This document shows positions 1 to 36,162 of a DNA stretch of 37,980 nucleotides, one piece after another; within the stretch, counting starts at the first letter, position 1; the number at the start of each line of letters is the position of its first letter. A program made the position numbers and the translations under genes. The notes beneath the pieces are model-generated. The model saw only the letters and a list, made by a program, of their open reading frames with translations. It had not been told where the DNA came from and did not search any database. Source of the stretch: a virus; the IMG/VR virus record IMGVR_UViG_3300014537_000008, one strand, 5' to 3'.

Positions 1-86
1 GCTACAGTGGATCGGCTGCATAATTTTCGTATAGCGGCATTGCTGGAGGGGATTCTGGATCGGCAAGCATTGGCGGGTATGATGGC
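1..86. repeat. 86-bp direct terminal repeat, identical to 37895-37980; assembly overlap of a circular or circularly permuted genome (unit 37,894 bp)
   Basis: Exact identity of window start and end read directly; a continuous ORF (37811..wrap..213) crosses the junction. Confidence 0.9.
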
Positions 87-213
87 AAAACATACGGTTA
101 GCATATACGATATGTGCATGAGTGGTCTGGAGTATCCGCTAGAACTATGGTTGGAGAAGATTACCGATCATATCAACTACCTACTGCTTTTATGGGCAAT
201 GTGCAATGATTAG
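1..213 (+). CDS. 3' part of the wrap-around hypothetical protein whose start is at 37811 (about 98 aa, all-alpha, function unknown)
   Basis: Reading frame is continuous across the terminal repeat; track ORF 7..213 is its C-terminal part. Confidence 0.5.
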   Translation, partial: ATVDRLHNFRIAALLEGILDRQALAGMMAKHTVSIYDMCMSGLEYPLELWLEKITDHINYLLLLWAMCND

Positions 214-291
214 GCAAGGGATATTACCTGCAAGAGTGCCTTAAATTTGACCGAGAAGGTGGTTCTAACGCAAAGTAGGTAATAAAATATA

Positions 292-486
292 GTGGTCAAG
301 GGAAAAAACGATTCTAGGGCAAATATGGAGGTCAAAATGGGTAAACGAGTCAGCCGCGCCTACGTTCGCAAATACACCGCAGATAAAATTGAGGATGACC
401 GGCGCAAGGGTAAGCTCGATCCGGAGGCGGCGCGATACGGGCGAGAGGCATATAGGCGATACAAAAAACGGGAGGCGGGCAAATGA
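292..486 (+). CDS. small basic (Arg/Lys-rich) hypothetical protein; alternative start at ATG 337 with GGAGG RBS
   Basis: 64-aa ORF; GGAGG at 327-331 precedes ATG 337; stop overlaps next start (ATGA). Confidence 0.45.
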   Translation: MVKGKNDSRANMEVKMGKRVSRAYVRKYTADKIEDDRRKGKLDPEAARYGREAYRRYKKREAGK

Positions 487-566
487 GTAGTATCTTATGT
501 TTTGTTGGTGGCGTGATATTGGGATTTATGGTGGCAGCGTTGTTGAGTGCAAATGGAGGGGATTAG
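483..566 (+). CDS. 27-aa hydrophobic micropeptide (MSSILCFVGGVILGFMVAALLSANGGD), single predicted TM
   Basis: GGGAGG RBS 6 nt upstream; ATGA start/stop overlap with upstream ORF; its TAG sits 1 nt before the GTG of the next gene. Confidence 0.3.
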   Translation: MSSILCFVGGVILGFMVAALLSANGGD

Positions 567-567
567 G

Positions 568-963
568 GTGACAAAAAGAGACCTGCAACAATACCGGGCA
601 TTGTGTGATGAGGCAAACACGATCAAGGCCGAGATAGAGCGATTGCAAACGTCTGTCCAAAGTCCGAGATTGACGGGGATGCCGCATGGCGGCGGTGATC
701 CGGATCGTGTAGGATCGCTCGTGGCAAAAAAGGTTGACCTAGAAAACCGGCTGATGGATAGGGTGGAGCGGCTGTATGAGCTGCGAAACAAGATCGAGGA
801 TGCCATGGAGCGATTGAGTCCGGATCAACGTCTATTACTGCGGTATCGGTATATCGAGGGGATGACCTGGGAGAGTGTCTGTGTCAAGATGCATTATTCC
901 TGGAAGCAGATACACAGGATTCATGCAAAAATTTTGCGAATCCTCGAAGATGACACACAATGA
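568..963 (+). CDS. phage late-gene transcriptional activator, ArpU/RinA/DUF1492-like (sigma-70 region-4-like HTH); track start 547
   Basis: Motifs GMPHGGGDPD and LSPDQRLLLRYRYIEGMTWESV typical of the family; GGAGGGG RBS before GTG 568. Confidence 0.6.
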   Translation: MTKRDLQQYRALCDEANTIKAEIERLQTSVQSPRLTGMPHGGGDPDRVGSLVAKKVDLENRLMDRVERLYELRNKIEDAMERLSPDQRLLLRYRYIEGMTWESVCVKMHYSWKQIHRIHAKILRILEDDTQ

Positions 964-1062
964 CACACTATTTTGTGCTATGATGGTAACATCAAAAAAC
1001 TAGGTACTGCCGGAGCGTGTCCGTGATAGTGGCGGACATAAATTTGAAAAGGAGAATTGTCA

Positions 1063-1265
1063 TGAATGAGCAAATTGAGAGGGCTTTCACGTATCATGCG
1101 CCCAAAGCCGGACAGCCGGAACAATACACCAAATTGAGAGAGACGGCAAAGGTTATGGCCTATCTTATCGAGGAGTTGTGTCCGAATAGCTGCGAAAAGG
1201 ATTTGGCTATGACCAGGCTTGAAGAGAGTGTTATGTGGGCTAATGCATCGATTGCGCGCAACTAA
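1063..1265 (+). CDS. hypothetical small phage protein (67 aa)
   Basis: AAAGGAGA RBS 7 nt before ATG 1063; track ORF 1017..1265. Confidence 0.5.
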
Positions 1266-1278
1266 AGCATACTATTAG

Positions 1279-1307
1279 GCCGTCCAGCAATGGGCGGCTG
1301 TTTTGTG
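1279..1307 (+). terminator. rho-independent terminator (GCCGTCC/GGGCGGC stem, then TGTTTTGTG)
   Basis: 7-bp stem with one G-U, T-rich tail, directly after the 1265 stop. Confidence 0.5.
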
Positions 1308-1334
1308 AAAAAAAAGAACGCCTTTTAGGCGTCC
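1308..1334 (-). terminator. rho-independent terminator for the minus-strand XRE gene (AACGCC/GGCGT hairpin; 8-T run on the minus strand)
   Basis: Hairpin encloses the XRE stop codon; A8 on plus equals T8 on minus. Confidence 0.6.
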
Positions 1335-1516
1335 TCTTCCATCCCTGCCAGCTGATCCAGCGATACATCTAGCGCCCTAGCTAGTTTTACGGCAATAGAT
1401 AACATACAGTCCCCGCGCTTTTCGATATCCTGAATAGTGCGGCGGGGAACGCCAGATAGTTCCACAAGTTTCGGGACAGATAGTCCCTTTTCAAGCCTGA
1501 TCTCTCGTAGTTTCAT
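1325..1516 (-). CDS. XRE-family HTH transcriptional regulator (Cro/CI-type, 63 aa)
   Basis: LSVPKLVELSGVPRRTIQDIEKG is a classic HTH_3; GGAAG RBS. Confidence 0.8.
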   Translation of the reverse strand: MKLREIRLEKGLSVPKLVELSGVPRRTIQDIEKRGDCMLSIAVKLARALDVSLDQLAGMEEDA

Positions 1517-1667
1517 GGCGGCTCTTCCTTTCGACGATAAGATTCAAAATTAGGCAAACCGCAAGGAGAGCAATATTAATCCAGCCCAACGCACCGTTTG
1601 GCCAACCATCAATAAGGTGGAGGACGACGAGCGCGATTAGAATAATGGTAATAAAGTTTCTCTTCAT
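1491..1667 (-). CDS. possible 58-aa two-TM membrane protein (MKRNFITIILIALVVLHLIDGWPNGALGWINIALLAVCLILNL...); no clear RBS and overlaps the XRE start by 26 nt
   Basis: ORF found by reverse-complement translation; below the 60-aa track cut-off. Confidence 0.2.
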   Translation of the reverse strand: MKRNFITIILIALVVLHLIDGWPNGALGWINIALLAVCLILNLIVERKSRHETTRDQA

Positions 1668-1698
1668 TTTTTGCGGTCAATGTGGTATACTATAGTCG

Positions 1699-1715
1699 CT
1701 CCCCCCGAAGGGGAG
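1699..1715. other. perfect hairpin CTCCCC-ccgaa-GGGGAG immediately downstream (minus strand) of the 42-aa peptide ORF
   Basis: Read directly from the sequence; no adjacent U-tract. Confidence 0.4.
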
Positions 1716-1725
1716 AAGAGGGGAA

Positions 1726-1854
1726 TTACTTCCCCTTCTTCTTGGACTTGGCTTTCCGCTTTAGGAGCTTCTTTATCAGTGTGATGGCTGTGAGGCTCAG
1801 GACTGCGGTTTCGGCCAGGTCCTTTATGATGGCGACTATATCTTGCCAGTGCAT
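1726..1854 (-). CDS. 42-aa membrane peptide MHWQDIVAIIKDLAETAVLSLTAITLIKKLLKRKAKSKKKGK (one TM plus a poly-Lys/Arg tail); toxin-like or holin-like
   Basis: AGGAGGA RBS 8 nt upstream; consensus promoter with operator just upstream; hairpin just downstream; hidden inside the low-complexity 77-aa track ORF 1664..1897. Confidence 0.45.
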   Translation of the reverse strand: MHWQDIVAIIKDLAETAVLSLTAITLIKKLLKRKAKSKKKGK

Positions 1855-1887
1855 TGACCATTCCTCCTTTCTTTTTAAGATGTATAT

Positions 1888-1916
1888 AGTATAGCACGTT
1901 ATTACGTGCTTGTCAA
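1888..1916 (-). promoter_or_regulatory. consensus sigma-70 promoter TTGACA-17-TATACT (minus strand) whose spacer is the 7-4-7 palindrome AGCACGT-TATT-ACGTGCT (operator, 1893-1910)
   Basis: Exact hexamers and 17-nt spacing read from the sequence; perfect inverted repeat inside the spacer. Confidence 0.6.
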
Positions 1917-1949
1917 TACCTTTTTTGCAAAATAATCCAAAAAATTTTT

Positions 1950-1973
1950 AGGGCCTTCTGAGGGTCCTTTTTT
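1950..1973 (+). terminator. plus-strand rho-independent terminator (GGGCC/GGUCC stem, T6) just upstream of terS
   Basis: Hairpin plus a T6 run; no plus-strand coding gene ends here. Confidence 0.45.
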
Positions 1974-2009
1974 GATGCTCGCAATACCGACGATAGGAGA
2001 TGATGAGAG

Positions 2010-2705
2010 TTGGCGAGAGCACCAGACGAGCGAATTGAGCAAGCAAAAGCCATGTATCTAAATGGGCAAAAATTAGTTGAGATAGCAAAGCAGTTGAACC
2101 TTCCGGAGGGGACGGTTCGGCGCTGGAAATGTACGAATAAATGGGAGAGCGAACGTTCGGAAAAGAATAGCGAACGTTCAAAAAGGAAGCGCGGCGCGCA
2201 GCCAGGGAATAAGAATAGCGCAGGCGGACCTGTAGGAAATACAAAAGCAGAAAAATTTGGTTTTTTTCGGAAGTACCTTCCGGGGGAGACGGTTTCGATC
2301 ATCGAGGAGATGCCGAAAGACCCATTGGATATCCTTTGGGATCAAATCCAAATCGCCTACGCCGCCATTATTCGGGCGCAGACGATTATGTATGTAAAAG
2401 ATCGGAACGACAAGACGATAGAAAAGGTTGGGGAGAAATCTGGGAAAGTTTTGGGGGAAGAATGGGAAGTCCAGCACGCTTGGGATAAGCAAGGGAGCTT
2501 TTTGCAGGCACAGGCAAGGGCGCAAAAAACGTTGGAAGGTATGATTAATCGCTACGAAGAGCTCCTGCATAAAAATTGGGAAGCTGCCAGCGAGGAGCAA
2601 AAAGCTAGAATTGGCAAGATCAAGGCGCAGACGGATAGATTAACTGGCGATAATCAAGAGGTCGAAGACCTGGACGAAATAGAGAGTGAGATTTATGGGG
2701 GTTAA
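2010..2705 (+). CDS. terS: terminase small subunit (N-terminal HTH, Gly/Asn-rich linker), TTG start
   Basis: HTH (GQKLVEIAKQLNLPEGTVRRW) plus GNKNSAGGPVGNTKAEKFGF motif typical of TerS; sits upstream of TerL; AGGAGA RBS. Confidence 0.7.
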   Translation: MARAPDERIEQAKAMYLNGQKLVEIAKQLNLPEGTVRRWKCTNKWESERSEKNSERSKRKRGAQPGNKNSAGGPVGNTKAEKFGFFRKYLPGETVSIIEEMPKDPLDILWDQIQIAYAAIIRAQTIMYVKDRNDKTIEKVGEKSGKVLGEEWEVQHAWDKQGSFLQAQARAQKTLEGMINRYEELLHKNWEAASEEQKARIGKIKAQTDRLTGDNQEVEDLDEIESEIYGG

Positions 2706-4047
2706 GCGAAAACGATCTATCCCTTTTCGCTTCTCGGAAAAACACAAGGAGTACATTCGTCGATGCGCATTTAACGCTTATAATGTCGCAGAGGGTGCCG
2801 TTCGTGCGGGAAAAACAGTGGATAATGTTTTTGCTTTTGCTCATGATCTCAAAACGACGCCCGATAGAATCCATTTGGCTACAGGCTCCACGATGGCGAA
2901 TGCAAAGCTTAACATTGGAGATGCAAACGGTTTTGGGCTTGAGTATATTTTTAGGGGACAATGCAATTGGGGTAAGTATAAAGATAATGAGGCATTGTTT
3001 GTTAAGGGGCCTGACACTAAAAATCGGCAAAAGATTGTAATCTTTGCGGGAGCCGCGAAAGAGGACAGTTATAAAAAAATTCGAGGCAATTCCTACGGGA
3101 TGTGGATTGCAACGGAGATCAATCTGCATCACGACAACATGATTAAAGAGGCGTTCAATCGGCAGCTGGCCGCCAACCGGCCTAAGGTTTTCTGGGATCT
3201 GAATCCAGATAACCCTAAAGCTGCAATTTATTCCCAGTATATTGACAAGTACAAGGACCAGGCGGAGGCGGGAAATTTCCCAGGTGGTTACAACTACATG
3301 CACTGTACCATTTACGACAATATTAATATTACGCCGGAACGGCTGCATGAGATTGAGAGCCGCTATGATAAAAACAGTATCTGGTATCTACGGGACATCA
3401 AGGGGCAGAGGATCGTTGCAAATGGGCTGATTTATCGGCGCTTTGCGGATGATACCAGCACAAAGCAATTTACCTATCGACTTGAGGATAAGCCAAAAGA
3501 CATCGCCGAAATCGTTCTGGGGATTGACTTTGGCGGGAACGGTTCTGGACATTCTTTTACAGCGACCGCGATTACGCGGGGATTCCAAAATGTCATTGTA
3601 TTGGCGTCGGAATGGATCAGCTGCCACGAGGAGGAGATTGACCCGGAGGAGCTTGGAAAACGTTTTTGTAATTTCGTGCAAAAAATCTTGAGCCGATACG
3701 GTTATATCACAATCGTTTACGCAGATAGTGAAGCGCAAACCCTGATTGTTGGAATTCGGAGTAGCCTGCGCAAGCATGGTCTGGGCTGGATTCGGGTAGA
3801 CAACGCTCTAAAAACCACGGTCAATGACCGAATCGATGCTACAGCCATCTTGATGGCACAAGGACGCTTTTATTATGTCGGAAACGACTGTCAAAGCCTG
3901 GTGAATGCGCTTTGCACGGCGGTTTGGAATCCCAAAGAGGTCACAAAAAATGAGCGATTGGATGACGGCACAAGCGATATTGACAGCTTGGACAGCTTCG
4001 AATATACCTTTGAACGTTATATCAGTCGCTTAATCAAATATGGATGA
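2686..4047 (+). CDS. terL: terminase large subunit, PBSX (XtmB) family
   Basis: Walker A GAVRAGKT; ATPase/nuclease layout; 453 aa; overlaps terS. Confidence 0.85.
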   Translation: MRFMGVKRKRSIPFRFSEKHKEYIRRCAFNAYNVAEGAVRAGKTVDNVFAFAHDLKTTPDRIHLATGSTMANAKLNIGDANGFGLEYIFRGQCNWGKYKDNEALFVKGPDTKNRQKIVIFAGAAKEDSYKKIRGNSYGMWIATEINLHHDNMIKEAFNRQLAANRPKVFWDLNPDNPKAAIYSQYIDKYKDQAEAGNFPGGYNYMHCTIYDNINITPERLHEIESRYDKNSIWYLRDIKGQRIVANGLIYRRFADDTSTKQFTYRLEDKPKDIAEIVLGIDFGGNGSGHSFTATAITRGFQNVIVLASEWISCHEEEIDPEELGKRFCNFVQKILSRYGYITIVYADSEAQTLIVGIRSSLRKHGLGWIRVDNALKTTVNDRIDATAILMAQGRFYYVGNDCQSLVNALCTAVWNPKEVTKNERLDDGTSDIDSLDSFEYTFERYISRLIKYG

Positions 4048-5504
4048 GAGGTGGTGAGATATTGACTTATACAAAAATGCTCTTGATGATCCAAAAAGCA
4101 CTGCAACATACGACTATTGACTGGTGTTTATCATCAGAAATGGCTAATCAAATTGATCTATGGACGCGAATGTTTGAGAATCGAGCCCCCTGGTTGAGTA
4201 AAACAGTTGAGAGTGCGGGGCTGTCAGCTGCAATCGCGAGTGAAGTGGCCCGACTAATCACGTTGGAACTAGTAACAGAGGTCTCTGGGTCTGCTAGGGC
4301 AACATATATCAACGATGCGTATCAAAAGACGGTCAAAAAATTACGACAATATGTAGAGTATGGTTGCGCAAAAGGCGGATTGATCTTTAAGCCTTATTAT
4401 ACGCATGATGGGATTGACGTGCAAATGTTGCAGGCGGATAGCTTTTTCCCGGTCACTTTTGATGGATCGGGGGCAATCTCGCAGTGTATCTTTCTGGAAC
4501 AGTTTCGGATTGGCAATAAGATTTATAGCCGCATTGAGATGCACACTTTGCAGGGTACAAAGTTGATCATCGAGAATCATGTTTTTGTGAGTACAAACGA
4601 TTTTAGCCTTGGTAGTGAGATTCCGATTACGTCGGTGAAACGGTGGCGGGATATTGCGCAGAGCCTTGTGGTTGACGGTGTGACACGGTTGCCCTTCGGA
4701 TATTTTAAATTTCCGCTGGCCAATACACGGGATTCAGACAGCCCACTGGGCGTATCGGTGTACTCTCGGGCGATTGGGTTGATCCGAGAGGCGGATCGGC
4801 GGTACAGTCAAATTAACTGGGAATACGAGGCTAAAGAAGCTGCCGTCCATGCTGCAACTAGCATGATGCGATATAATCCGGATACGGATAAATTCGAATA
4901 CCCAGGAGGCAAAGATCGTCTATATCGGACCGTCGAAGTCAACAGCGGGGCCACCGAGAAGCCGTTGCTGGAAGAGTACTCACCCGATATTCGGGATGCT
5001 TCGCTGTATAATGGCTGGAATCAGCAAATGCGGATGATCGAATTTAATTGTGGACTGGCCTATGGTACGCTGTCCGATCCAAACAACGTAGATAAAACGG
5101 CAGAGGAAATTCGTTCCAGCAAACAGCGATCCTATCAAATGATTTCCGACGCGCAGGGGGCCTTGCAAAATGCGCTTGAGGACCTGATCGAGGCAATTGA
5201 TTTTTATTGCACACTCTATGACTTGGCCCCTGCCGGGCGATATGCTACATCGTTTAAGTGGGATGACTCCATTATTACAGATACAAATGCAATAGTTGAC
5301 ACTAACATCAAATTAACACAAGCCAGTTTACGGTCTAAACTTAGAGCTATCATGGAAATCAATCGATGCAGCGAGGAGGATGCACAGTTGGAATTGGATC
5401 GGATCGCAGGGGAGGGACAAATCACGGGACAAGATATAGATTGGACAGAGGGCGATAAAGAAGAGGCTACAGATGAATCCACTGATGAATCAGACGGCAG
5501 CTGA
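4044..5504 (+). CDS. portal protein (SPP1 gp6-like); alternative starts at TTG 4062 or ATG 4077
   Basis: 486 aa, acidic C-terminus, position after TerL; ATGA overlap with the terL stop. Confidence 0.8.
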   Translation: MRGGEILTYTKMLLMIQKALQHTTIDWCLSSEMANQIDLWTRMFENRAPWLSKTVESAGLSAAIASEVARLITLELVTEVSGSARATYINDAYQKTVKKLRQYVEYGCAKGGLIFKPYYTHDGIDVQMLQADSFFPVTFDGSGAISQCIFLEQFRIGNKIYSRIEMHTLQGTKLIIENHVFVSTNDFSLGSEIPITSVKRWRDIAQSLVVDGVTRLPFGYFKFPLANTRDSDSPLGVSVYSRAIGLIREADRRYSQINWEYEAKEAAVHAATSMMRYNPDTDKFEYPGGKDRLYRTVEVNSGATEKPLLEEYSPDIRDASLYNGWNQQMRMIEFNCGLAYGTLSDPNNVDKTAEEIRSSKQRSYQMISDAQGALQNALEDLIEAIDFYCTLYDLAPAGRYATSFKWDDSIITDTNAIVDTNIKLTQASLRSKLRAIMEINRCSEEDAQLELDRIAGEGQITGQDIDWTEGDKEEATDESTDESDGS

Positions 5505-6732
5505 TGCTACGACAGGGCTCTATCAAGATTTAGAAGAGCGTTTGATGATGAATATCATTCGGCACTGCAAAGACTACAATCAGCCAATCGCTTCGGATGT
5601 ATGGCTAATGCGCAAACTGGCCGAAATTGGAAAGCTCAACCAGGAGAACCTCAAGATTATTGCGGACACGGCTGGATTGTCGCAGACTGTGCTAGAACGC
5701 ATGTTAGACGCTACGGCGCAGGAAGCGATTGCGGAAATGGAACCCGGAATGCAAAAGCTTGCTAGGCAAGGGCTCGCAGGTGAGGCGATTTCGGCCGAAA
5801 AAAGTAAGAATATCAAGCAGACCATGAAGGGTCTCCAAAACCAGGCGCAGAGCACTTTGAATCTCTGTAATACCACAATGCTGTACAAAGCAAAATCTGC
5901 GTATGAAAAGTTTGTGCAGGCAGTCGCCACATCAGCGGATGAAATCTCAAATAAGCAGTCATTTTTGGATCGCCTGGGGCATCATGCATCAGCATCCGTA
6001 GTGGGGGCTGAGTCGCGACAACAGGCAATGCGCAAATGCATCAAGGATTTCAATGAGCGCGGAATTCCGGCGTTTGTGGATAAAAGAGGGCGCGAGTGGA
6101 CGCCAGAGGCATATGTCAATATGGCGCTGCGAAATACGGTTAAAAACGTAGCAGATGAAGTTCAAACAGCACGTTGCATAGACTATGATATTCGACTGAT
6201 TGAGATTGATTCTCACTCTGGCGCTCGGCCGAAATGCGCAAAGGATCAAGGCAAAATCTACAGTTTGGACAACAAAAGTGGGTATACAACGGATGCATCC
6301 GGAAAAAAAGTTCGATATTATCCTTGGAATAGCACCAGCTATGGGGAGCCGGATGGCATCCTGGGAATCAACTGCACACATCACAAATGGCCTTTTGTTC
6401 CTGGAGTATCTATGCGGACATATTTCCCGGTTGATGATCAGGCGGCTAGCGACAGATTGTATAAAGAGACGCAGGTACAACGAGCCCTTGAGCGAGATGT
6501 TCGCAAGCAAAAACGAGAGTGCATGTTGCATGATCAAATTGGAGATAAGGAGGCATTTGAAAATGCTGCTGTCACCTTGAAGCAGAAGGAAACTAAGCTG
6601 AAACAATATGTTGACGGAAATCCGGATTTGCACCGTCGTAAGGATCGGGAACAGGTAGTTGGATTTGATAAGCGGATTAGCGCTCAAGCAGTGGCAGCGA
6701 ACAAAAAACATTTGACCGGGCCGAAGTCGTAA
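5473..6732 (+). CDS. minor head / head morphogenesis protein (SPP1 gp7 / Mu F-like)
   Basis: Position after the portal; 419 aa; conserved mid-region typical of Phage_Mu_F. Confidence 0.7.
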   Translation: MNPLMNQTAADATTGLYQDLEERLMMNIIRHCKDYNQPIASDVWLMRKLAEIGKLNQENLKIIADTAGLSQTVLERMLDATAQEAIAEMEPGMQKLARQGLAGEAISAEKSKNIKQTMKGLQNQAQSTLNLCNTTMLYKAKSAYEKFVQAVATSADEISNKQSFLDRLGHHASASVVGAESRQQAMRKCIKDFNERGIPAFVDKRGREWTPEAYVNMALRNTVKNVADEVQTARCIDYDIRLIEIDSHSGARPKCAKDQGKIYSLDNKSGYTTDASGKKVRYYPWNSTSYGEPDGILGINCTHHKWPFVPGVSMRTYFPVDDQAASDRLYKETQVQRALERDVRKQKRECMLHDQIGDKEAFENAAVTLKQKETKLKQYVDGNPDLHRRKDREQVVGFDKRISAQAVAANKKHLTGPKS

Positions 6733-6789
6733 AACTACGGAGCCAATGGGAGCGACCCCGTAAAAAGCGTATGGAGAGAGGAGATTAAC

Positions 6790-7326
6790 ATGCAGCGGAA
6801 ATTCTTGGAAGGATTAGGGTTGGAAAAAGAAGTCATTGATAGGATCATGGATGCCAATGGATCAGACGTGGAAAGAATGAAGGGTGAGCGAGACGAATAT
6901 AAGCGGCAGCTCATTGAAGCCCAAACAACGCTGAAAAGCTTTGAAGGCGTCGATGTGAAGGAACTGCAAGACAGAATTGCCAAATTGACTGATGATCTAA
7001 AAACAAAGGATGCAGATTATCAGCAAAAATTGGCAGATCGAGATTTTGCAGATATTTTACGAGACGAAATCATCGCATCCGGCGCAAAAAATGCAAAAGC
7101 TGTCATGGCTCTTTTGGATCAGGACATGCTGAAAGCTAGTAAGAATCAAAAAGAGGATATCCAGAAGGCGTTGGAAACGGTCAAGCAAGAAAACGACTAC
7201 CTATTTCAAGGCACAAAGCCAGTTCCACGGGTAGTATCAACGACGTCGGGACCCAACCCAGCAACAGAAGACAAAAAAACACAGGCAAATGAGGCTTTGA
7301 GAAGTCTCTTTGGGAGAGGAGAATAA
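6790..7326 (+). CDS. scaffolding protein (coiled-coil, acidic)
   Basis: Alpha-helical charged 178-aa protein directly before the major capsid gene; strong RBS GAGAGGAG. Confidence 0.65.
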   Translation: MQRKFLEGLGLEKEVIDRIMDANGSDVERMKGERDEYKRQLIEAQTTLKSFEGVDVKELQDRIAKLTDDLKTKDADYQQKLADRDFADILRDEIIASGAKNAKAVMALLDQDMLKASKNQKEDIQKALETVKQENDYLFQGTKPVPRVVSTTSGPNPATEDKKTQANEALRSLFGRGE

Positions 7327-19350: not shown

Positions 19351-20367
19351 ATGGCATATAAAATTTGTCTCGATGCGGGGCACTACGGACAGTACAACCA
19401 GTCTCCGGTGGTGCCAGAATACTACGAATCGGAGATGACCTGGAAACTCCATCTGCTACTCAAGGCTGAGTTGGAAAAGTACGGGTTCGAGGTCAAGACC
19501 ACAAGAGCGGACCAGACAAAAGATATGGATGTGTACTATCGAGGATACGCGGCTCAAAACTGTGATCTATTTTTGAGTTTGCATAGCAACGCGGCAGACA
19601 GCGAGTCCGCAGACTATGTAGTAGCCTATCGCGCCTACGACAATAAAAACAACGCTGATACGCTAGGATTGGCACTCGCTCAAAAAGTGGCAGACATCAT
19701 GGGGACAAAGCAAAATCCCCGAACCGCTACTCGCAAAAACAGCTCCGGCAATGAGTGGTATGGCGTGATGCGTGGTGCAAGAGCCGCAGGATGCAAACTG
19801 TATTACATCCTGGAGCACTCATTCCATACCAACGCAGCGGCCACACAATTTTTGATGCAAGACGCCAATCTGCAAAAACTAGCAGAGGCAGAGGCAGCAA
19901 TAATCGCAAATTATTTTGGAGTAACGGCATCAGCAACCGAGTCAAAACCATCCGCATCCTCTCAAAAGCCGGCTGTATCCGGCCATATCGCAGATGTGCA
20001 GCGCTGGCTTAACAAAGAGTACGGCTTTGCCCTAGAGGTAGACAACAGCGCAGGGCCCTTGACCTGGACGGCGCTGCGAAAAGCCCTTCAAATGGAGATC
20101 AACCGGCAGAGCGGAGCAAGCCTAGAGATTGACGGGAGTATTGGCCCGAAGACAAAAACGGCGATCATCTACACAAAGCGCGGAACAAAAGGCAATATCA
20201 CAAAGCTGGTTCAGGCGGCGCTGTATTGCAAGGGCTACGATCCAAATGGCCTAGACGGCAGCTTCGGGCCAGGTATGGAGGCCGCAGTGCGCAAGTATCA
20301 GGCGGATCATGGATTGACGGTAGATGGTATGGCTGGACGAGAGACGCAGGTTAGTTTGTTTAGATAA
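19351..20367 (+). CDS. endolysin: N-acetylmuramoyl-L-alanine amidase (Amidase_3) with two C-terminal PG_binding_1 repeats
   Basis: KICLDAGHYG...LSLHSNAA amidase motifs; two LDGxFGPxTxxAVxxYQ peptidoglycan-binding repeats. Confidence 0.85.
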   Translation: MAYKICLDAGHYGQYNQSPVVPEYYESEMTWKLHLLLKAELEKYGFEVKTTRADQTKDMDVYYRGYAAQNCDLFLSLHSNAADSESADYVVAYRAYDNKNNADTLGLALAQKVADIMGTKQNPRTATRKNSSGNEWYGVMRGARAAGCKLYYILEHSFHTNAAATQFLMQDANLQKLAEAEAAIIANYFGVTASATESKPSASSQKPAVSGHIADVQRWLNKEYGFALEVDNSAGPLTWTALRKALQMEINRQSGASLEIDGSIGPKTKTAIIYTKRGTKGNITKLVQAALYCKGYDPNGLDGSFGPGMEAAVRKYQADHGLTVDGMAGRETQVSLFR

Positions 20368-24853: not shown

Positions 24854-25927
24854 TTAGTAACAGAAGCCATCAATCGCGTCAAGCAAATTTTGCAAATTTT
24901 TGTGAATATACACTTGTTCATCGATATCCTTCCCAGCGTGACCTACAATCGCCTGCAAAACTGTTCGAGGCATTCCCAATTCATCCGCACGGCTGATGAA
25001 TGTGTGGCGACAATCGTGGGGCAAATGCTCAACGCCAATTACGGCCATCAGCGCATTAAATTGTTTACGAATAGTTTGTTGGGAAAAGCCGCATAAAACT
25101 GGTTCGTCCCTATCAAGGAGACGTTGTATGCAATCTGTGATCTCGAAATGAATCGGAATGACGCGATTTTTTCCAGCGGCAGTTTTATTCCCGCCGATCA
25201 TATATCGCTCGTCAAGATGGACATTCTCGCGCTTCATGGTCCGAACCTCATCGATGCGCATCCCGGTGTATAGCATGATCAAGGTATAGTCCGCAGCTAA
25301 TTCCCCACGATGCGATTCAAGCAATGCAATTTCATCTGCCGTAAAATTTTTGCGCTTACTTTTCGTATCCTGTTTGGTCAGCACAATGCCTTTTGAATAG
25401 TCTTTGTCTGTGATATCATACAGGTTGGCATATTCGTACATTTGCCCTATCAAGAGACGTATATTTTCCTGCGTTGCTCGTCCATGACTACAATTGTCAA
25501 GCACAGCCTGTAAATGCAATAGATTGATATTCACGAATTTCAAATTGTGCAGTGCCTCGCAATGGTGATAGGCCGCTCTGTACGCGCCGACGCCACTCTT
25601 CGAAAGCTTTTTCCCATTTTTGGTCTCACTAAATTTTTTCTTTGACCACATATCATATACATCTGCAAAGGTCAAAGACGCCTTTTCGAGATCGTATGGA
25701 TTACGATTGTAGTCAACTAGTGCCTCGTATCCCTCCATCCATGTTTCAAAGTACCCTATAGTCCGATAGATAGGATAGCCTGTATTTGTGTCAAATCCTA
25801 CTGTTTTCCGGGCCATAAAGGGTTTTCTGCGGTTGCCTGACAACGTGACGATGCTCCCAAATCCATTGGGAAGACGTGGTACGTTTCGTGGTCGCTTTGC
25901 TTTTTTGGTTTTTAATGCTGGTGCCAT
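24854..25927 (-). CDS. int: tyrosine site-specific integrase
   Basis: Catalytic residues in HDCRHTF, VGHAGKD and a C-terminal Tyr; 357 aa. Confidence 0.85.
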   Translation of the reverse strand: MAPALKTKKAKRPRNVPRLPNGFGSIVTLSGNRRKPFMARKTVGFDTNTGYPIYRTIGYFETWMEGYEALVDYNRNPYDLEKASLTFADVYDMWSKKKFSETKNGKKLSKSGVGAYRAAYHHCEALHNLKFVNINLLHLQAVLDNCSHGRATQENIRLLIGQMYEYANLYDITDKDYSKGIVLTKQDTKSKRKNFTADEIALLESHRGELAADYTLIMLYTGMRIDEVRTMKRENVHLDERYMIGGNKTAAGKNRVIPIHFEITDCIQRLLDRDEPVLCGFSQQTIRKQFNALMAVIGVEHLPHDCRHTFISRADELGMPRTVLQAIVGHAGKDIDEQVYIHKNLQNLLDAIDGFCY

Positions 25928-26755: not shown

Positions 26756-27502
26756 ATGGATGAACTAATAAAGATCAATTACGAAAAATGACCGGCCCAC
26801 AGTATCGGCAAGAGAACTACATGAATTTTGGAGGTTGGAACGCCGTTTGATAAATGGTTCCCGAGAATGTGCGAGTATGGATTCTCCGATGGAGTTGACT
26901 ATTCGACATTTTTGTCGGATAGGTCTGACGGGCTACCAGGCAGACCGAGAATAGACGCCCAGTTAACCGTTGAGATGGCAAAAGAAATCGCTATGCTTCA
27001 GCGGAACGATAAAGGCAAGATCGCGCGGCAGTATTTCATTCAATTGGAAAAAGATTGGAACAGTCCCGAGAAGGTCATGGCCCGAGCACTGAGGATCGCA
27101 GAAAAAACAATTATCCGCTTAACCGATGAGAACGCTCAACAAAAACAGATCATAGCGGAATACAGCCCCAAAGCGAGCTATTATGATGTCGTACTACAGA
27201 CGCCGGATGCACTGTCTACCAGCCAGATCGCCAAGGACTACGGTAAATCTGCAAAATGGTTAAATCAGTATCTACATGCCCGTGGGGTGCAGTATAACCA
27301 GGGAGGTGTGTGGCTACTGTACCAGAAACATGCAGAGCAGGGCTACACACGATCTAAAACACATGTGTACTGTGGTGACGATGGCCAGCAACATAGCAAA
27401 CTCCACACATACTGGACGCAAAAGGGGCGGCTGTTTATTTATGACTTACTCAAATCAGATGGAATATTCCCGCTGATGGAGCTTGATGATCAACCAGCAT
27501 AG
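26756..27502 (+). CDS. phage antirepressor (AntA/ORF6N-like N-terminus, ORF6C and KilA-C/ANT domains); 5' region disrupted by two compensating homopolymer indels (A5 at 26784-26788, T4 at 26826-26829); the intact ORF resumes at TTG 26828
   Basis: GGGGAG RBS before ATG 26756; frame 1 gives MDELIKINYE, frame 3 gives NDRPTVSARELHEF, frame 1 resumes LEVGTPFDKWFPRMCEYGF; two in-frame TGA codons lie in the shifted 37-nt segment. Confidence 0.6.
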
Positions 27503-35886: not shown

Positions 35887-36162
35887 CACGACCTATTGAC
35901 AACCCCTATGACAACCCTGTGACAAGTTTTTAGATTTAAAAGCTGTCACAGGGCTGTGACAACCTGAAAAATAGTTGTCACAGGGTAATTACGGGGTTGT
36001 CACAAGGTTGTCACACTGATAAATAGAAGGCTAGAGCCTATTTGTGACAACTGTGACAACTATTTATCTAAGGACTTTAAAAAGTAAGGTTTTACACAGA
36101 TAATAGTGTTAAAACACGCATATATACTCATATACGCGCGCGCGCGCGCGCGCGTGTCACAC
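35883..36162. repeat. iteron array: at least 11 copies of GTTGTCACA(G/A)G / CCTGTGACAAC in both orientations; putative origin of replication
   Basis: Copies at about 35898, 35910, 35918, 35944, 35955, 35974, 35997, 36008, 36043, 36052 and 36156. Confidence 0.65.
36135..36154. repeat. (CG)10 alternating dinucleotide tract
   Basis: Read directly; lies inside the putative ori, 22 nt upstream of the VRR-NUC start. Confidence 0.9.

Follow-up and report, generated by a model that had tools for sequence, protein, structure and literature searches.

Among the described systems closest to the locus examined here are the toxin-antitoxin (TA) systems of type I that Firmicute prophages carry, which in Bacillus subtilis include bsrG/SR4, txpA/RatA and yonT-yoyJ/SR6. 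Prophages of Clostridioides difficile carry established small hydrophobic toxins with a lysine-rich C-terminus together with cis-antisense RNAs, for instance CD0977.1/RCd11 and CD0956.2/RCd10 (PMC7699646, PMC6563280). This report describes a cassette of similar layout in a viral DNA of 37,980 nucleotides (nt) (IMG/VR record IMGVR_UViG_3300014537_000008), the whole of which is referred to as the window. The cassette occupies positions 1308-1975 on the minus strand, backwards between the late-regulator/Acb2 genes and the terminase gene terS, and comprises in minus-strand order a promoter with an operator in its spacer, the gene of a 42-amino-acid (aa) peptide (P1), GC-rich hairpins, a second small membrane protein gene (ORF2), an XRE-family regulator gene (XRE) and a terminator. 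An earlier note on this DNA had placed the interval between the late activator and the terminase, and it is indeed autonomous, having been inserted between the late activator/Acb2 genes and terS. No description of the cassette was found in the literature. Its features are the following.

1916..1888, minus strand: main promoter, TTGACA-17-TATACT with TGn, of the consensus sigma-A type, scoring 11/12
1893-1910, core 1894-1909: operator AGCACGT-N4-ACGTGCT, which fills the spacer of the main promoter
1861..1871, minus strand: near-perfect Shine-Dalgarno sequence of P1, GAAAGGAGGAA, 8 nt before the ATG
1854..1726, minus strand: P1, 42 aa, behind AAAGGAGG
1714-1742, minus strand: hairpin at the 3' end of P1, with a GUAA loop around the P1 stop codon
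1699-1715, minus strand: CTCCCC/GGGGAG hairpin with a UUCG-type loop
1491..1667, minus strand: ORF2, 58 aa, a membrane protein with two transmembrane (TM) segments, without Shine-Dalgarno sequence
1325..1516, minus strand: XRE, helix-turn-helix (HTH) repressor of the XRE family, 63 aa (Pfam HTH_3, E=1.8e-8)
1334..1308, minus strand: intrinsic terminator of the cassette operon (hairpin 1334..1316, T8 1315..1308)
1663..1691, plus strand: convergent antisense promoter, with a -35-like TTCATT at 1663-1668 and TGTGGTATACT (TRTG plus -10) at 1681-1691
1698..1974, plus strand: predicted cis-antisense RNA of ~270 nt, deduced from promoter and terminator
1950-1974, plus strand: intrinsic terminator (stem 1950-1968 plus T-run), 36 nt before the terS start codon

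This arrangement suggests a type I TA-like unit, formed by P1 and an antisense RNA, nested in an XRE-autorepressed moron operon, a reading that we give about an even chance and in which the toxicity of P1, the RNA and the binding of XRE are predicted from the DNA and by analogy. The likeness to the type I TA systems of Firmicute prophages includes a peptide of <60 aa that has a hydrophobic helix and is rich in lysine at one end, the prophage location, and a convergent cis-antisense unit that starts just 3' of the peptide ORF and has GC hairpins in the overlap, its RNA being predicted at ~110-285 nt. In contrast to these systems, the cassette peptide shows no sequence similarity to their toxins and is the first cistron of an operon with a second membrane protein and a repressor, it has a perfect Shine-Dalgarno sequence and a short leader free of structure, and the antisense RNA of the window would span the gene in full together with its promoter instead of the 3' end only. 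The cassette is thus best called, as far as its sequence goes, a type I TA-like locus in layout, but one that lacks both the homology and the two-component composition of that class.

Related loci were collected by means of P1 homologues (2), the operator/promoter DNA pattern (19 more) and an XRE alignment (80 more viral). Those found with the DNA pattern lie on viral contigs and in metagenome-assembled genomes (MAGs) of Oscillospiraceae, Ruminococcaceae, Clostridiaceae and Sedimentibacter, and removal of duplicates left ~58 distinct cassettes (viral contigs, Bacillota MAGs). P1 is co-transcribed with ORF2 and XRE in ~56/~58 of them, which departs from a two-component system with an RNA antitoxin only. 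The XRE proteins are 51-79% identical to that of the window while the types of P1 and ORF2 change together, and in almost every cassette the XRE gene overlaps or abuts the ORF2-type gene.

The contigs of the two P1 homologues can be aligned with the window over the stretch bounded by the plus-strand terminator and the XRE terminator, beyond which they diverge, one of them belonging to a phage with a different terS family; the flanks differ among the window, L001 and L002. In nearly all loci the cassette is antisense to both neighbours. The divergent neighbour by the main promoter is terS (three Pfam families) in at least 17/39 loci and an HNH endonuclease in 4, others being holin, tail and lysis proteins, and on the opposite side DUF1492/sigma-r4 regulators, methylases, holins and others are found. 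Among terS relatives of the window, 43 distinct ones were examined and 0/43 carry the cassette, which elsewhere stands beside unrelated neighbours; this was the outcome of the comparison of the terS-upstream slot that the earlier note had recommended. The cassette has its own promoter and terminator and is absent from close relatives, as is characteristic of phage morons, and these sequence comparisons indicate that 1308-1975 is a horizontally mobile three-gene cassette. Megablast of positions 1-6000 against phage records gave no match. The exact XRE protein of the window occurs in 144 blocks of a public assembly collection, the contigs being no longer than 20-50 kb and including some from SRR35113993, ERR13993839, SRR21869932 and ERZ27334077, so the phage is common in metagenomes. 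The sole named phage record with the cassette is MZ417522.1 (L102, 4791-9973), an UNVERIFIED "Mycolicibacterium phage J1" with no useful annotation, which is suspected to be mis-assembled or misattributed since it is classified in the Microviridae yet measures 24,953 bp.

The main promoter is the only TTGACA-17-TATACT match without mismatches in the window, in which 0.13 matches are expected at <=1 mismatch; at that threshold it is accompanied by a single site within a coding region, and its description in the earlier note as a third promoter of the same design was not reproduced. The other elements read there do exist: the minus-strand promoter at 1888-1916 (11/12, with TG), the palindrome AGCACGT-TATT-ACGTGCT as its spacer at 1893-1910, the 42-aa ORF 1854..1726 with its strong ribosome-binding site, the perfect CTCCCC/GGGGAG hairpin that follows it (1699-1715), the XRE gene 1516..1325 with its own terminator, the plus-strand extended -10 (TGTGGTATACT, 1681-1691) and the plus-strand terminator (1950-1973). 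The operator core, GCACG-N6-CGTGC, has one copy in the window, where matches with 2 mismatches are at chance level, and the centres of its half-sites are 11 bp apart, i.e., one helical turn. Across related cassettes the operator varies at its centre but not in its arms, the family form of promoter and operator being TTGAC(a/t)-(a)GCACG-N6-CGTGC-TATAAT. An operator-in-spacer promoter precedes the XRE start by 200-630 nt (mostly 310-420) in 61/63 loci, and in these loci the cognate palindrome in the gene's own promoter is inherited together with the gene, as expected of an autorepressor. This co-inheritance supports the claim that the peptide is operator-controlled with XRE as the regulator, and a dimer of XRE would probably bind the operator in its own promoter. 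Action of XRE elsewhere in the phage was considered and rejected, as the window has no second operator.

The XRE product itself is, by its sequence, an ordinary HTH_3 protein (34.7 bits against a cutoff of 23, which places it in the XRE/Cro-C1 family), whereas P1 and ORF2 match nothing described. It has no ligand domain, its recognition helix RRTIQD is invariant in an alignment of 12 cassette XREs, and its closest solved relatives are C.BclI, CylR2 and C.AhdI. Two further observations concern the operator and repressor outside the standard arrangement. In three contigs of 90-110 kb (L004 242-265, L012 1068-1091, L014 8021-8044) the operator occurs twice in tandem, AACAGCACGTTACAACGTG.. then AGACAAGCACGTTTAAACGTGCTATAAT, before a long leader and with no P1/ORF2/XRE arrangement downstream; the operator/repressor pair has apparently been reused in other regulatory contexts. 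In a Sedimentibacter MAG (L020, JAHDLA010000011.1, ~630 nt 5' of its XRE) the same promoter/operator and XRE enclose a 91-aa soluble-looking protein in place of P1 and ORF2, which suggests that cargo can be swapped on a platform made up of XRE and the operator.

Purifying selection acts on all three ORFs (dN/dS 0.05-0.26; window against L002, dS 0.5-1.0, with similar values for other pairs), and the lowest value belongs to P1 (0.05, compared with 0.09 for XRE and 0.26 for ORF2, which also has an in-frame indel). P1 combines an IIKDL motif in its N-terminal part with a single hydrophobic helix and, at the C-terminus, a polybasic tail (net charge +8, counted on the C-terminal 12 residues). In its subfamily (alignment A6) I9, K11, D12, L13, T22, A23 and L26 are invariant. 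In the family as a whole P1 is hypervariable, with 27-47 aa, always a hydrophobic or amphipathic helix and in most members a polybasic run at the C- or N-terminus; P1, like ORF2, is hydrophobic and cationic throughout. It belongs among small (<60 aa) hydrophobic peptides that have a charged end and may form a TM helix, the window value being borderline (maximum 19-residue Kyte-Doolittle average 1.68) and that of most family members >1.6. The family Shine-Dalgarno sequence, GAAAGGAGG(TGA), lies only 22-34 nt after the -10, which makes the P1 leader very short.

P1 gave nothing significant in Pfam, PHROGs, NCBIfam or PADLOC, and tblastn against 50,697 phage records gave nothing at E<=10. The described toxin families (Fst/Ldr, Hok, TxpA/BsrG and the C. 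difficile phage toxins) do not include it according to Pfam, NCBIfam, PHROG and tblastn; neither P1 nor ORF2 matches a holin in Pfam or PHROG, the endolysin lying at 19351-20367; and in PADLOC neither has a match while XRE matches generic regulator models only. Called homologues of P1 are just two among 5.8 billion proteins, and a search for related loci with the P1 alignment produced 162 pattern matches of which 0 were confirmed, the query being too short. The resemblance to type I toxins or small holins proposed by the earlier note therefore finds support in the type I-like layout and none in any sequence relation to known toxins or holins. Since P1 and ORF2 have no homology to a known toxin, holin or defence protein, toxicity is only inferred; by analogy with type I toxins of C. 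difficile prophages that are hydrophobic and carry a lysine tail, P1 may be membrane-damaging (PMC7699646, PMC6563280).

In one close group of cassettes (L029, L031, L026) P1 is broken, by a nonsense mutation of codon 5 (AAA to TAA) in two and by a +1 frameshift in an A-run in the third, while ORF2 and XRE are intact. This could reflect counter-selection of a harmful peptide or sequencing error.

A second, strand-specific unit lies between P1 and ORF2 and points back at P1. In Gram-positive bacteria TRTG at -16 plus a -10 is a recognised promoter motif. Between the hairpin and ORF2 the antisense strand has T[AG]TGnTAnnnT in 42/53 cassettes and the sense strand in 0/53 (shuffles 1.8), and cassettes without TRTG have a full -35 instead, e.g., TTGACT-17-TATAAT (L027) or TTGACA-17-TATACT (L040), with the -35 overlapping the ORF2 start codon as the -35-like TTCATT of the window does. 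The two GC-rich hairpins sit at the base of the 5' end of the predicted antisense RNA; in the family the hairpin base is mostly 6-7 nt after the antisense -10, hence the RNA would start with a 5' stem-loop. The family hairpin has a mean dG of -16.6 kcal/mol and in 30/44 cases a sense-strand loop GAAA, UUCG, GCAA or GUAA; it was rejected as an ordinary intrinsic terminator after P1 because on the sense strand the 10 nt that follow the stem hold only 3.1 T on average. The 58-nt stretch between P1 and ORF2 differs from L002 by 1 substitution and 1 indel, while synonymous sites nearby have dS 0.5-1.0.

Terminator-like sites are also asymmetric, at +90..+300 on the antisense strand in 34/43 cassettes versus 2/43 on the sense strand (shuffles 3.1). 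In some subfamilies the antisense terminator is inside P1 (+110 to +137), with the stem kept despite base changes in L006 and L075; in the subfamily of the window it is placed about 55 nt past the main -35, being the terminator at 1950-1974 (+271), with weaker candidates at +38 and +222 (about 1744 and about 1929), the stem of the +222 candidate being formed by the operator palindrome. The predicted RNA covers the P1 ORF, its Shine-Dalgarno sequence and the main promoter, and folds more stably than shuffled sequences (1698-1976, z = -4.1), as does the P1 mRNA (z = -3.4). The P1-less variants L039 and L020 also lack the hairpin and the antisense promoter, which indicates that the antisense unit goes with P1 and not with ORF2/XRE or the neighbour; in L039 ORF2 has a strong Shine-Dalgarno sequence. 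A protein encoded on the plus strand was discarded, because the ORFs there (1682-1894 and 1671-1784) run antisense to P1, and it is the frame of P1 that carries the signature of synonymous change; the earlier note had likewise seen no credible protein ORF downstream. Its ~270-nt antisense RNA over the peptide gene is supported in silico by the conservation of promoter and terminator across the family and their absence from P1-less variants; the RNA molecule keeps the standing of an in silico prediction.

These counts bear directly on the reading that the antisense promoter and terminator have no function and merely arise from AT-rich intergenic DNA and from junctions rich in terminators, with only the XRE operon real. 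A consensus scan of the window by itself is at chance, with 4 promoter-like sites against 4.3 expected, as that reading would have it; the strand asymmetry over independent lineages (promoter 42/53 versus 0/53, terminator 34/43 versus 2/43), the conserved hairpin spacing and the loss of the motif along with P1 leave it scarcely credible.

The plus-strand terminator requires separate consideration, as it is found both with and without the cassette. In terS relatives without the cassette a plus-strand terminator lies 43-60 nt before terS in 28/43, which makes it a lineage feature and means that in the window it is not specific evidence for an RNA gene. The hairpin in those relatives is often GGAG[TC]CACC...GTGGCTCC and is followed by a conserved TTTTCTATACCCAAAAC(C/A)GACGAA...GAGGTGA leader (loci L103-L166); a remnant of this leader, CAATACCGACGATAGGAG, is retained in the window. 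The cassette also brings a terminator of its own, since in one subfamily the arms GCATCTG/CAGGTGC and the spacer to the -35 are identical beside terS and beside a holin gene. In L002/L003 the plus-strand terminator of the window is conserved, with changes in the stem that keep its pairing, though the gene beyond differs. The element is best read as doing both jobs, namely ending late-strand transcripts that leave the cassette and shielding terS or the holin gene. The suggestion of the earlier note that it simply insulates the late operon is correct with respect to terS, as the 28/43 cassette-less relatives indicate, and incomplete in that the terminator would also end the antisense RNA. The minus-strand operon terminator, whose hairpin loop holds the XRE stop codon, is kept in L002/L003 apart from an A-to-G change and an additional C, both in the loop (alignment A1).

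The start of terS 36 nt after the terminator leaves no room for a canonical terS promoter, and late transcription might reach terS by read-through, by antitermination or from an unusual promoter served by the DUF1492/sigma-r4 regulator. It could accordingly be argued that the plus-strand promoter and terminator together make up the late (terS) operon's leader, similar to lambda PR'-tR' and read through by means of an antiterminator or late regulator, the overlap with P1 being incidental. The antisense promoter is the nearest promoter of sigma-A type upstream of terS, and the same arrangement occurs in most cassette-bearing loci and its terminator in 28/43 cassette-less relatives. The promoter nevertheless travels with the cassette to places beside holin, HNH endonuclease, tail and same-strand genes, it is missing in the P1-less L039, which still has the terminator and a divergent neighbour, and cassette-less relatives keep the terminator without it. 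We regard a late leader as very improbable.

ORF2 was proposed by the earlier note as a possible two-TM ORF (1667..1491), and the selection on it (dN/dS 0.26) shows it to be a real gene. Its maximum 19-residue Kyte-Doolittle average is 2.47, its 3' end shares 26 nt with the start of the XRE gene, and the subfamily of the window has a TM-DG.F..P..LD-TM design with a conserved DG.F..P..LD loop (alignment A5). Across the family ORF2 is a membrane protein of 29-64 aa, usually without a Shine-Dalgarno sequence, and its type co-varies with that of P1 as a pair. Only 21 homologues were found, all hypothetical; Pfam, PHROGs, NCBIfam and PADLOC gave nothing significant, and ORF2 was called on none of the six contigs read that carry the XRE of this phage. 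An internal sense-strand promoter for ORF2 was rejected, since TRTGnTAnnnT and TGnTAnnnT occur in 0/53 and 8/53 cassettes on the sense strand versus 42/53 and 46/53 on the antisense strand.

The proximity of a small membrane protein gene and a repressor gene recalls CylR1/CylR2 of the Enterococcus faecalis cytolysin, in which a small multi-TM gene abuts the gene of a ~65-aa XRE repressor that binds a promoter inverted repeat. One may therefore consider a module of peptide, partner and regulator, comparable to SdpC/SdpI/SdpR of Bacillus subtilis, in which P1 would be a toxin or signal and ORF2 an immunity protein or a membrane sensor relaying the status of P1 to XRE. Such a module would suit an XRE that has no ligand domain and whose gene overlaps or abuts that of a small membrane protein in almost every cassette, the same arrangement as cylR1 (94 aa, 3 TM) abutting cylR2 (66 aa) in L101; CylR2 is among the closest solved relatives of XRE, the P1 and ORF2 types co-vary, and the P1-less L039 keeps ORF2 and XRE like an orphan immunity/regulator pair. 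However, the comparison of the ORF2 family with CylR1 shows no homology (hhalign probability 0.1), on which ground ORF2 was rejected as a CylR1 homologue; the likeness to CylR2 is of the generic XRE kind, no better than that to restriction-modification (R-M) controller proteins; and the cassette regulates its own promoter. XRE remains 51-79% identical though ORF2 differs beyond recognition (1-TM of 30 aa to 2-TM of 58 aa), which argues against a specific contact between the two, and P1 has no export signal and the cassette no transporter. A module of this type appears to us quite improbable.

The R-M controller (C) proteins C.BclI and C.AhdI are the closest sequence relatives of XRE and, like it, small autoregulators acting on palindromes in their own promoters, and they time the expression of dangerous cargo after entry into a new cell. 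The cassette differs in its operator, in having the regulator gene last and not first, and in the absence of R-M genes, as there is no adjacent endonuclease and methyltransferase pair but only P1, ORF2 and XRE, flanked by terS and Acb2.

Other systems combine a repressor with an antisense RNA, as is predicted for the cassette. In tisB/istR-1, of the LexA-controlled type I toxins of E. coli, a repressor operator in the promoter of a small amphipathic toxin is likewise combined with an antisense RNA layer, and TisB has charged residues in its helix, as P1 does (K11, D12, E15); the cassette differs in encoding its own autoregulated repressor and in that its putative RNA is cis-encoded and convergent, and there is no homology. 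The immI region of phage P22 (Pant-arc-ant/sar) is also a phage accessory operon with a small autorepressor, an internal convergent promoter and a short antisense RNA; there, however, sar targets the ribosome-binding site of the downstream ant gene, whereas the cassette RNA would run over the upstream gene, and the product is an antirepressor instead of membrane peptides. In prgQ/prgX of the E. faecalis plasmid pCF10, two promoters that face each other at a distance of ~200 nt lie on either side of a small-peptide gene with a hairpin after it, the peptide promoter is the target of an XRE-type repressor, and antisense RNA is combined with transcriptional interference; PrgX is, in contrast to the bare 63-aa HTH protein encoded on the sense transcript of the cassette, a large peptide-binding RRNPP protein encoded on the antisense transcript.

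If the cassette is a type I-like unit within an autorepressed operon, it may work as follows. A host sigma-A promoter of maximal strength would drive P1, ORF2 and XRE in that order, until an XRE dimer on the spacer palindrome blocks RNA polymerase and so imposes negative autoregulation on all three. The convergent extended -10 promoter would send transcription backwards over the hairpins, all of the P1 gene and the main promoter as far as the terminator ~270 nt off, and the antisense RNA, or the act of its transcription, would silence P1 specifically; because the convergent promoter sits between P1 and ORF2, P1 alone would be under this second lock and ORF2 and XRE would not. When the repressor and the antisense RNA are absent or lost, as upon entry into a naive cell, prophage loss or transcription shut-off, a burst of P1 would follow, during which sense transcription over the antisense promoter would suppress the latter. 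Membrane damage by P1 would then serve prophage addiction, abortive infection or exclusion.

Several points weigh against this scheme. The helix of the window P1 is borderline for a TM segment (1.68) and contains K11, D12 and E15, and P1 has no detectable similarity to known type I toxin families or to C. difficile phage sequences. A co-transcribed repressor is absent from classical type I systems, as is a second membrane protein, and many of their toxin mRNAs are restrained by 5' structure, whereas the P1 leader is very short and unstructured with a perfect Shine-Dalgarno sequence. As to the RNA, the terminator before terS is also present in cassette-less phages, a hairpin and pyrimidine tract at ~+36 could end the antisense RNA early in cassettes with a C-terminal polybasic P1, and Rfam contains no relevant family (gathering threshold on the whole window; E<=10 on 1250-2050).

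The same anatomy may alternatively serve products that do no harm. P1 and ORF2 would in that event be non-toxic membrane effectors of superinfection exclusion or another lysogenic conversion, made early on entry and kept at a low, autoregulated level in lysogens, with the antisense promoter trimming P1 dosage or resolving a conflict with late transcription and the terminator insulating terS. The orientation of the cassette, antisense to both flanks in nearly all loci with its own promoter and terminators, is the classic design of a moron; negative autoregulation together with a consensus promoter and a perfect Shine-Dalgarno sequence suits a product needed fast and then steadily; P1 and ORF2 types co-vary as a pair; the terS terminator occurs without the cassette in 28/43 relatives; and inactivation of P1 is rare. 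On the other hand, a strand-specific antisense promoter (42/53) that is lost with P1 seems too elaborate for the trimming of dosage, neither protein resembles known exclusion proteins, and the physicochemistry of P1 fits pore-forming small toxins. Harmless effectors are therefore considered an unlikely explanation, although one to be taken seriously.

The genome that carries the cassette resembles a complete temperate siphovirus-type genome, its temperate nature following from the integrase and the antirepressor. The genes around the cassette and those that characterise the phage are the following.

568-963, plus strand: late-regulator-type protein (Sigma70_r4/DUF1492; phrog_36, E=8e-32)
1063-1265, plus strand: Acb2/Tad1-hairpin-domain protein, 67 aa (Pfam PF24729, E=1.5e-19; phrog_1454)
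1278-1299: terminator after the Acb2 gene
2010-2705, plus strand: terS (phrog_509, E=3e-80)
2686-4047, plus strand: terL, with the portal gene next
19351-20367: amidase endolysin
24854-25927, minus strand: tyrosine integrase
26828-27502: antirepressor

Some other features of the genome are worth recording. The Acb2 gene, preceded by a promoter-like TGTGCTATGAT at 974-984, is a small unit by itself between the late regulator and the cassette, and its family (Acb2/Tad1) comprises phage sponges for CBASS/Thoeris signalling nucleotides. Just 5' of the late regulator there are two tiny plus-strand ORFs (483-566 and 337-486) without family matches, one encoding a 27-aa hydrophobic peptide (MSSILCFVGGVILGFMVAALLSANGGD) and the other a 49-aa highly basic protein. 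In the head-gene region, the Rfam GP20-b RNA motif (RF03003) matches at 6713-6771 on the plus strand (58.1 bits versus a gathering score of 36.2), just 5' of the ORF 6790-7326, and the early region contains a (GC)n run of ~22 nt at 36136-36157 (GCGCGCGCGCGCGCGC...).

Small phage genes are usually missed, and the cassette, now with a precise anatomy, is shared by dozens of uncultured Clostridia phages, in which it stands most often immediately 5' of terminase genes. It is possible, though we would put this forward only tentatively, that these loci constitute a widespread class in which a type I-like toxin/antisense pair inside an XRE-autorepressed operon, accompanied by a co-evolving membrane partner, acts as an entry-pulse or dead-man switch that gives phages of gut Clostridia abortive infection, exclusion or addiction, with XRE and the operator as the platform on which P1 and ORF2 diversify. 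If P1 is not toxic, the cassette would provide a clean natural case of convergent-promoter control, a compact part that could be reused for regulation. Should P1 be a toxin, a design of repressor plus antisense RNA would be added to the TA repertoire, and gut anaerobes would gain a new candidate function in prophage stability or phage defence.

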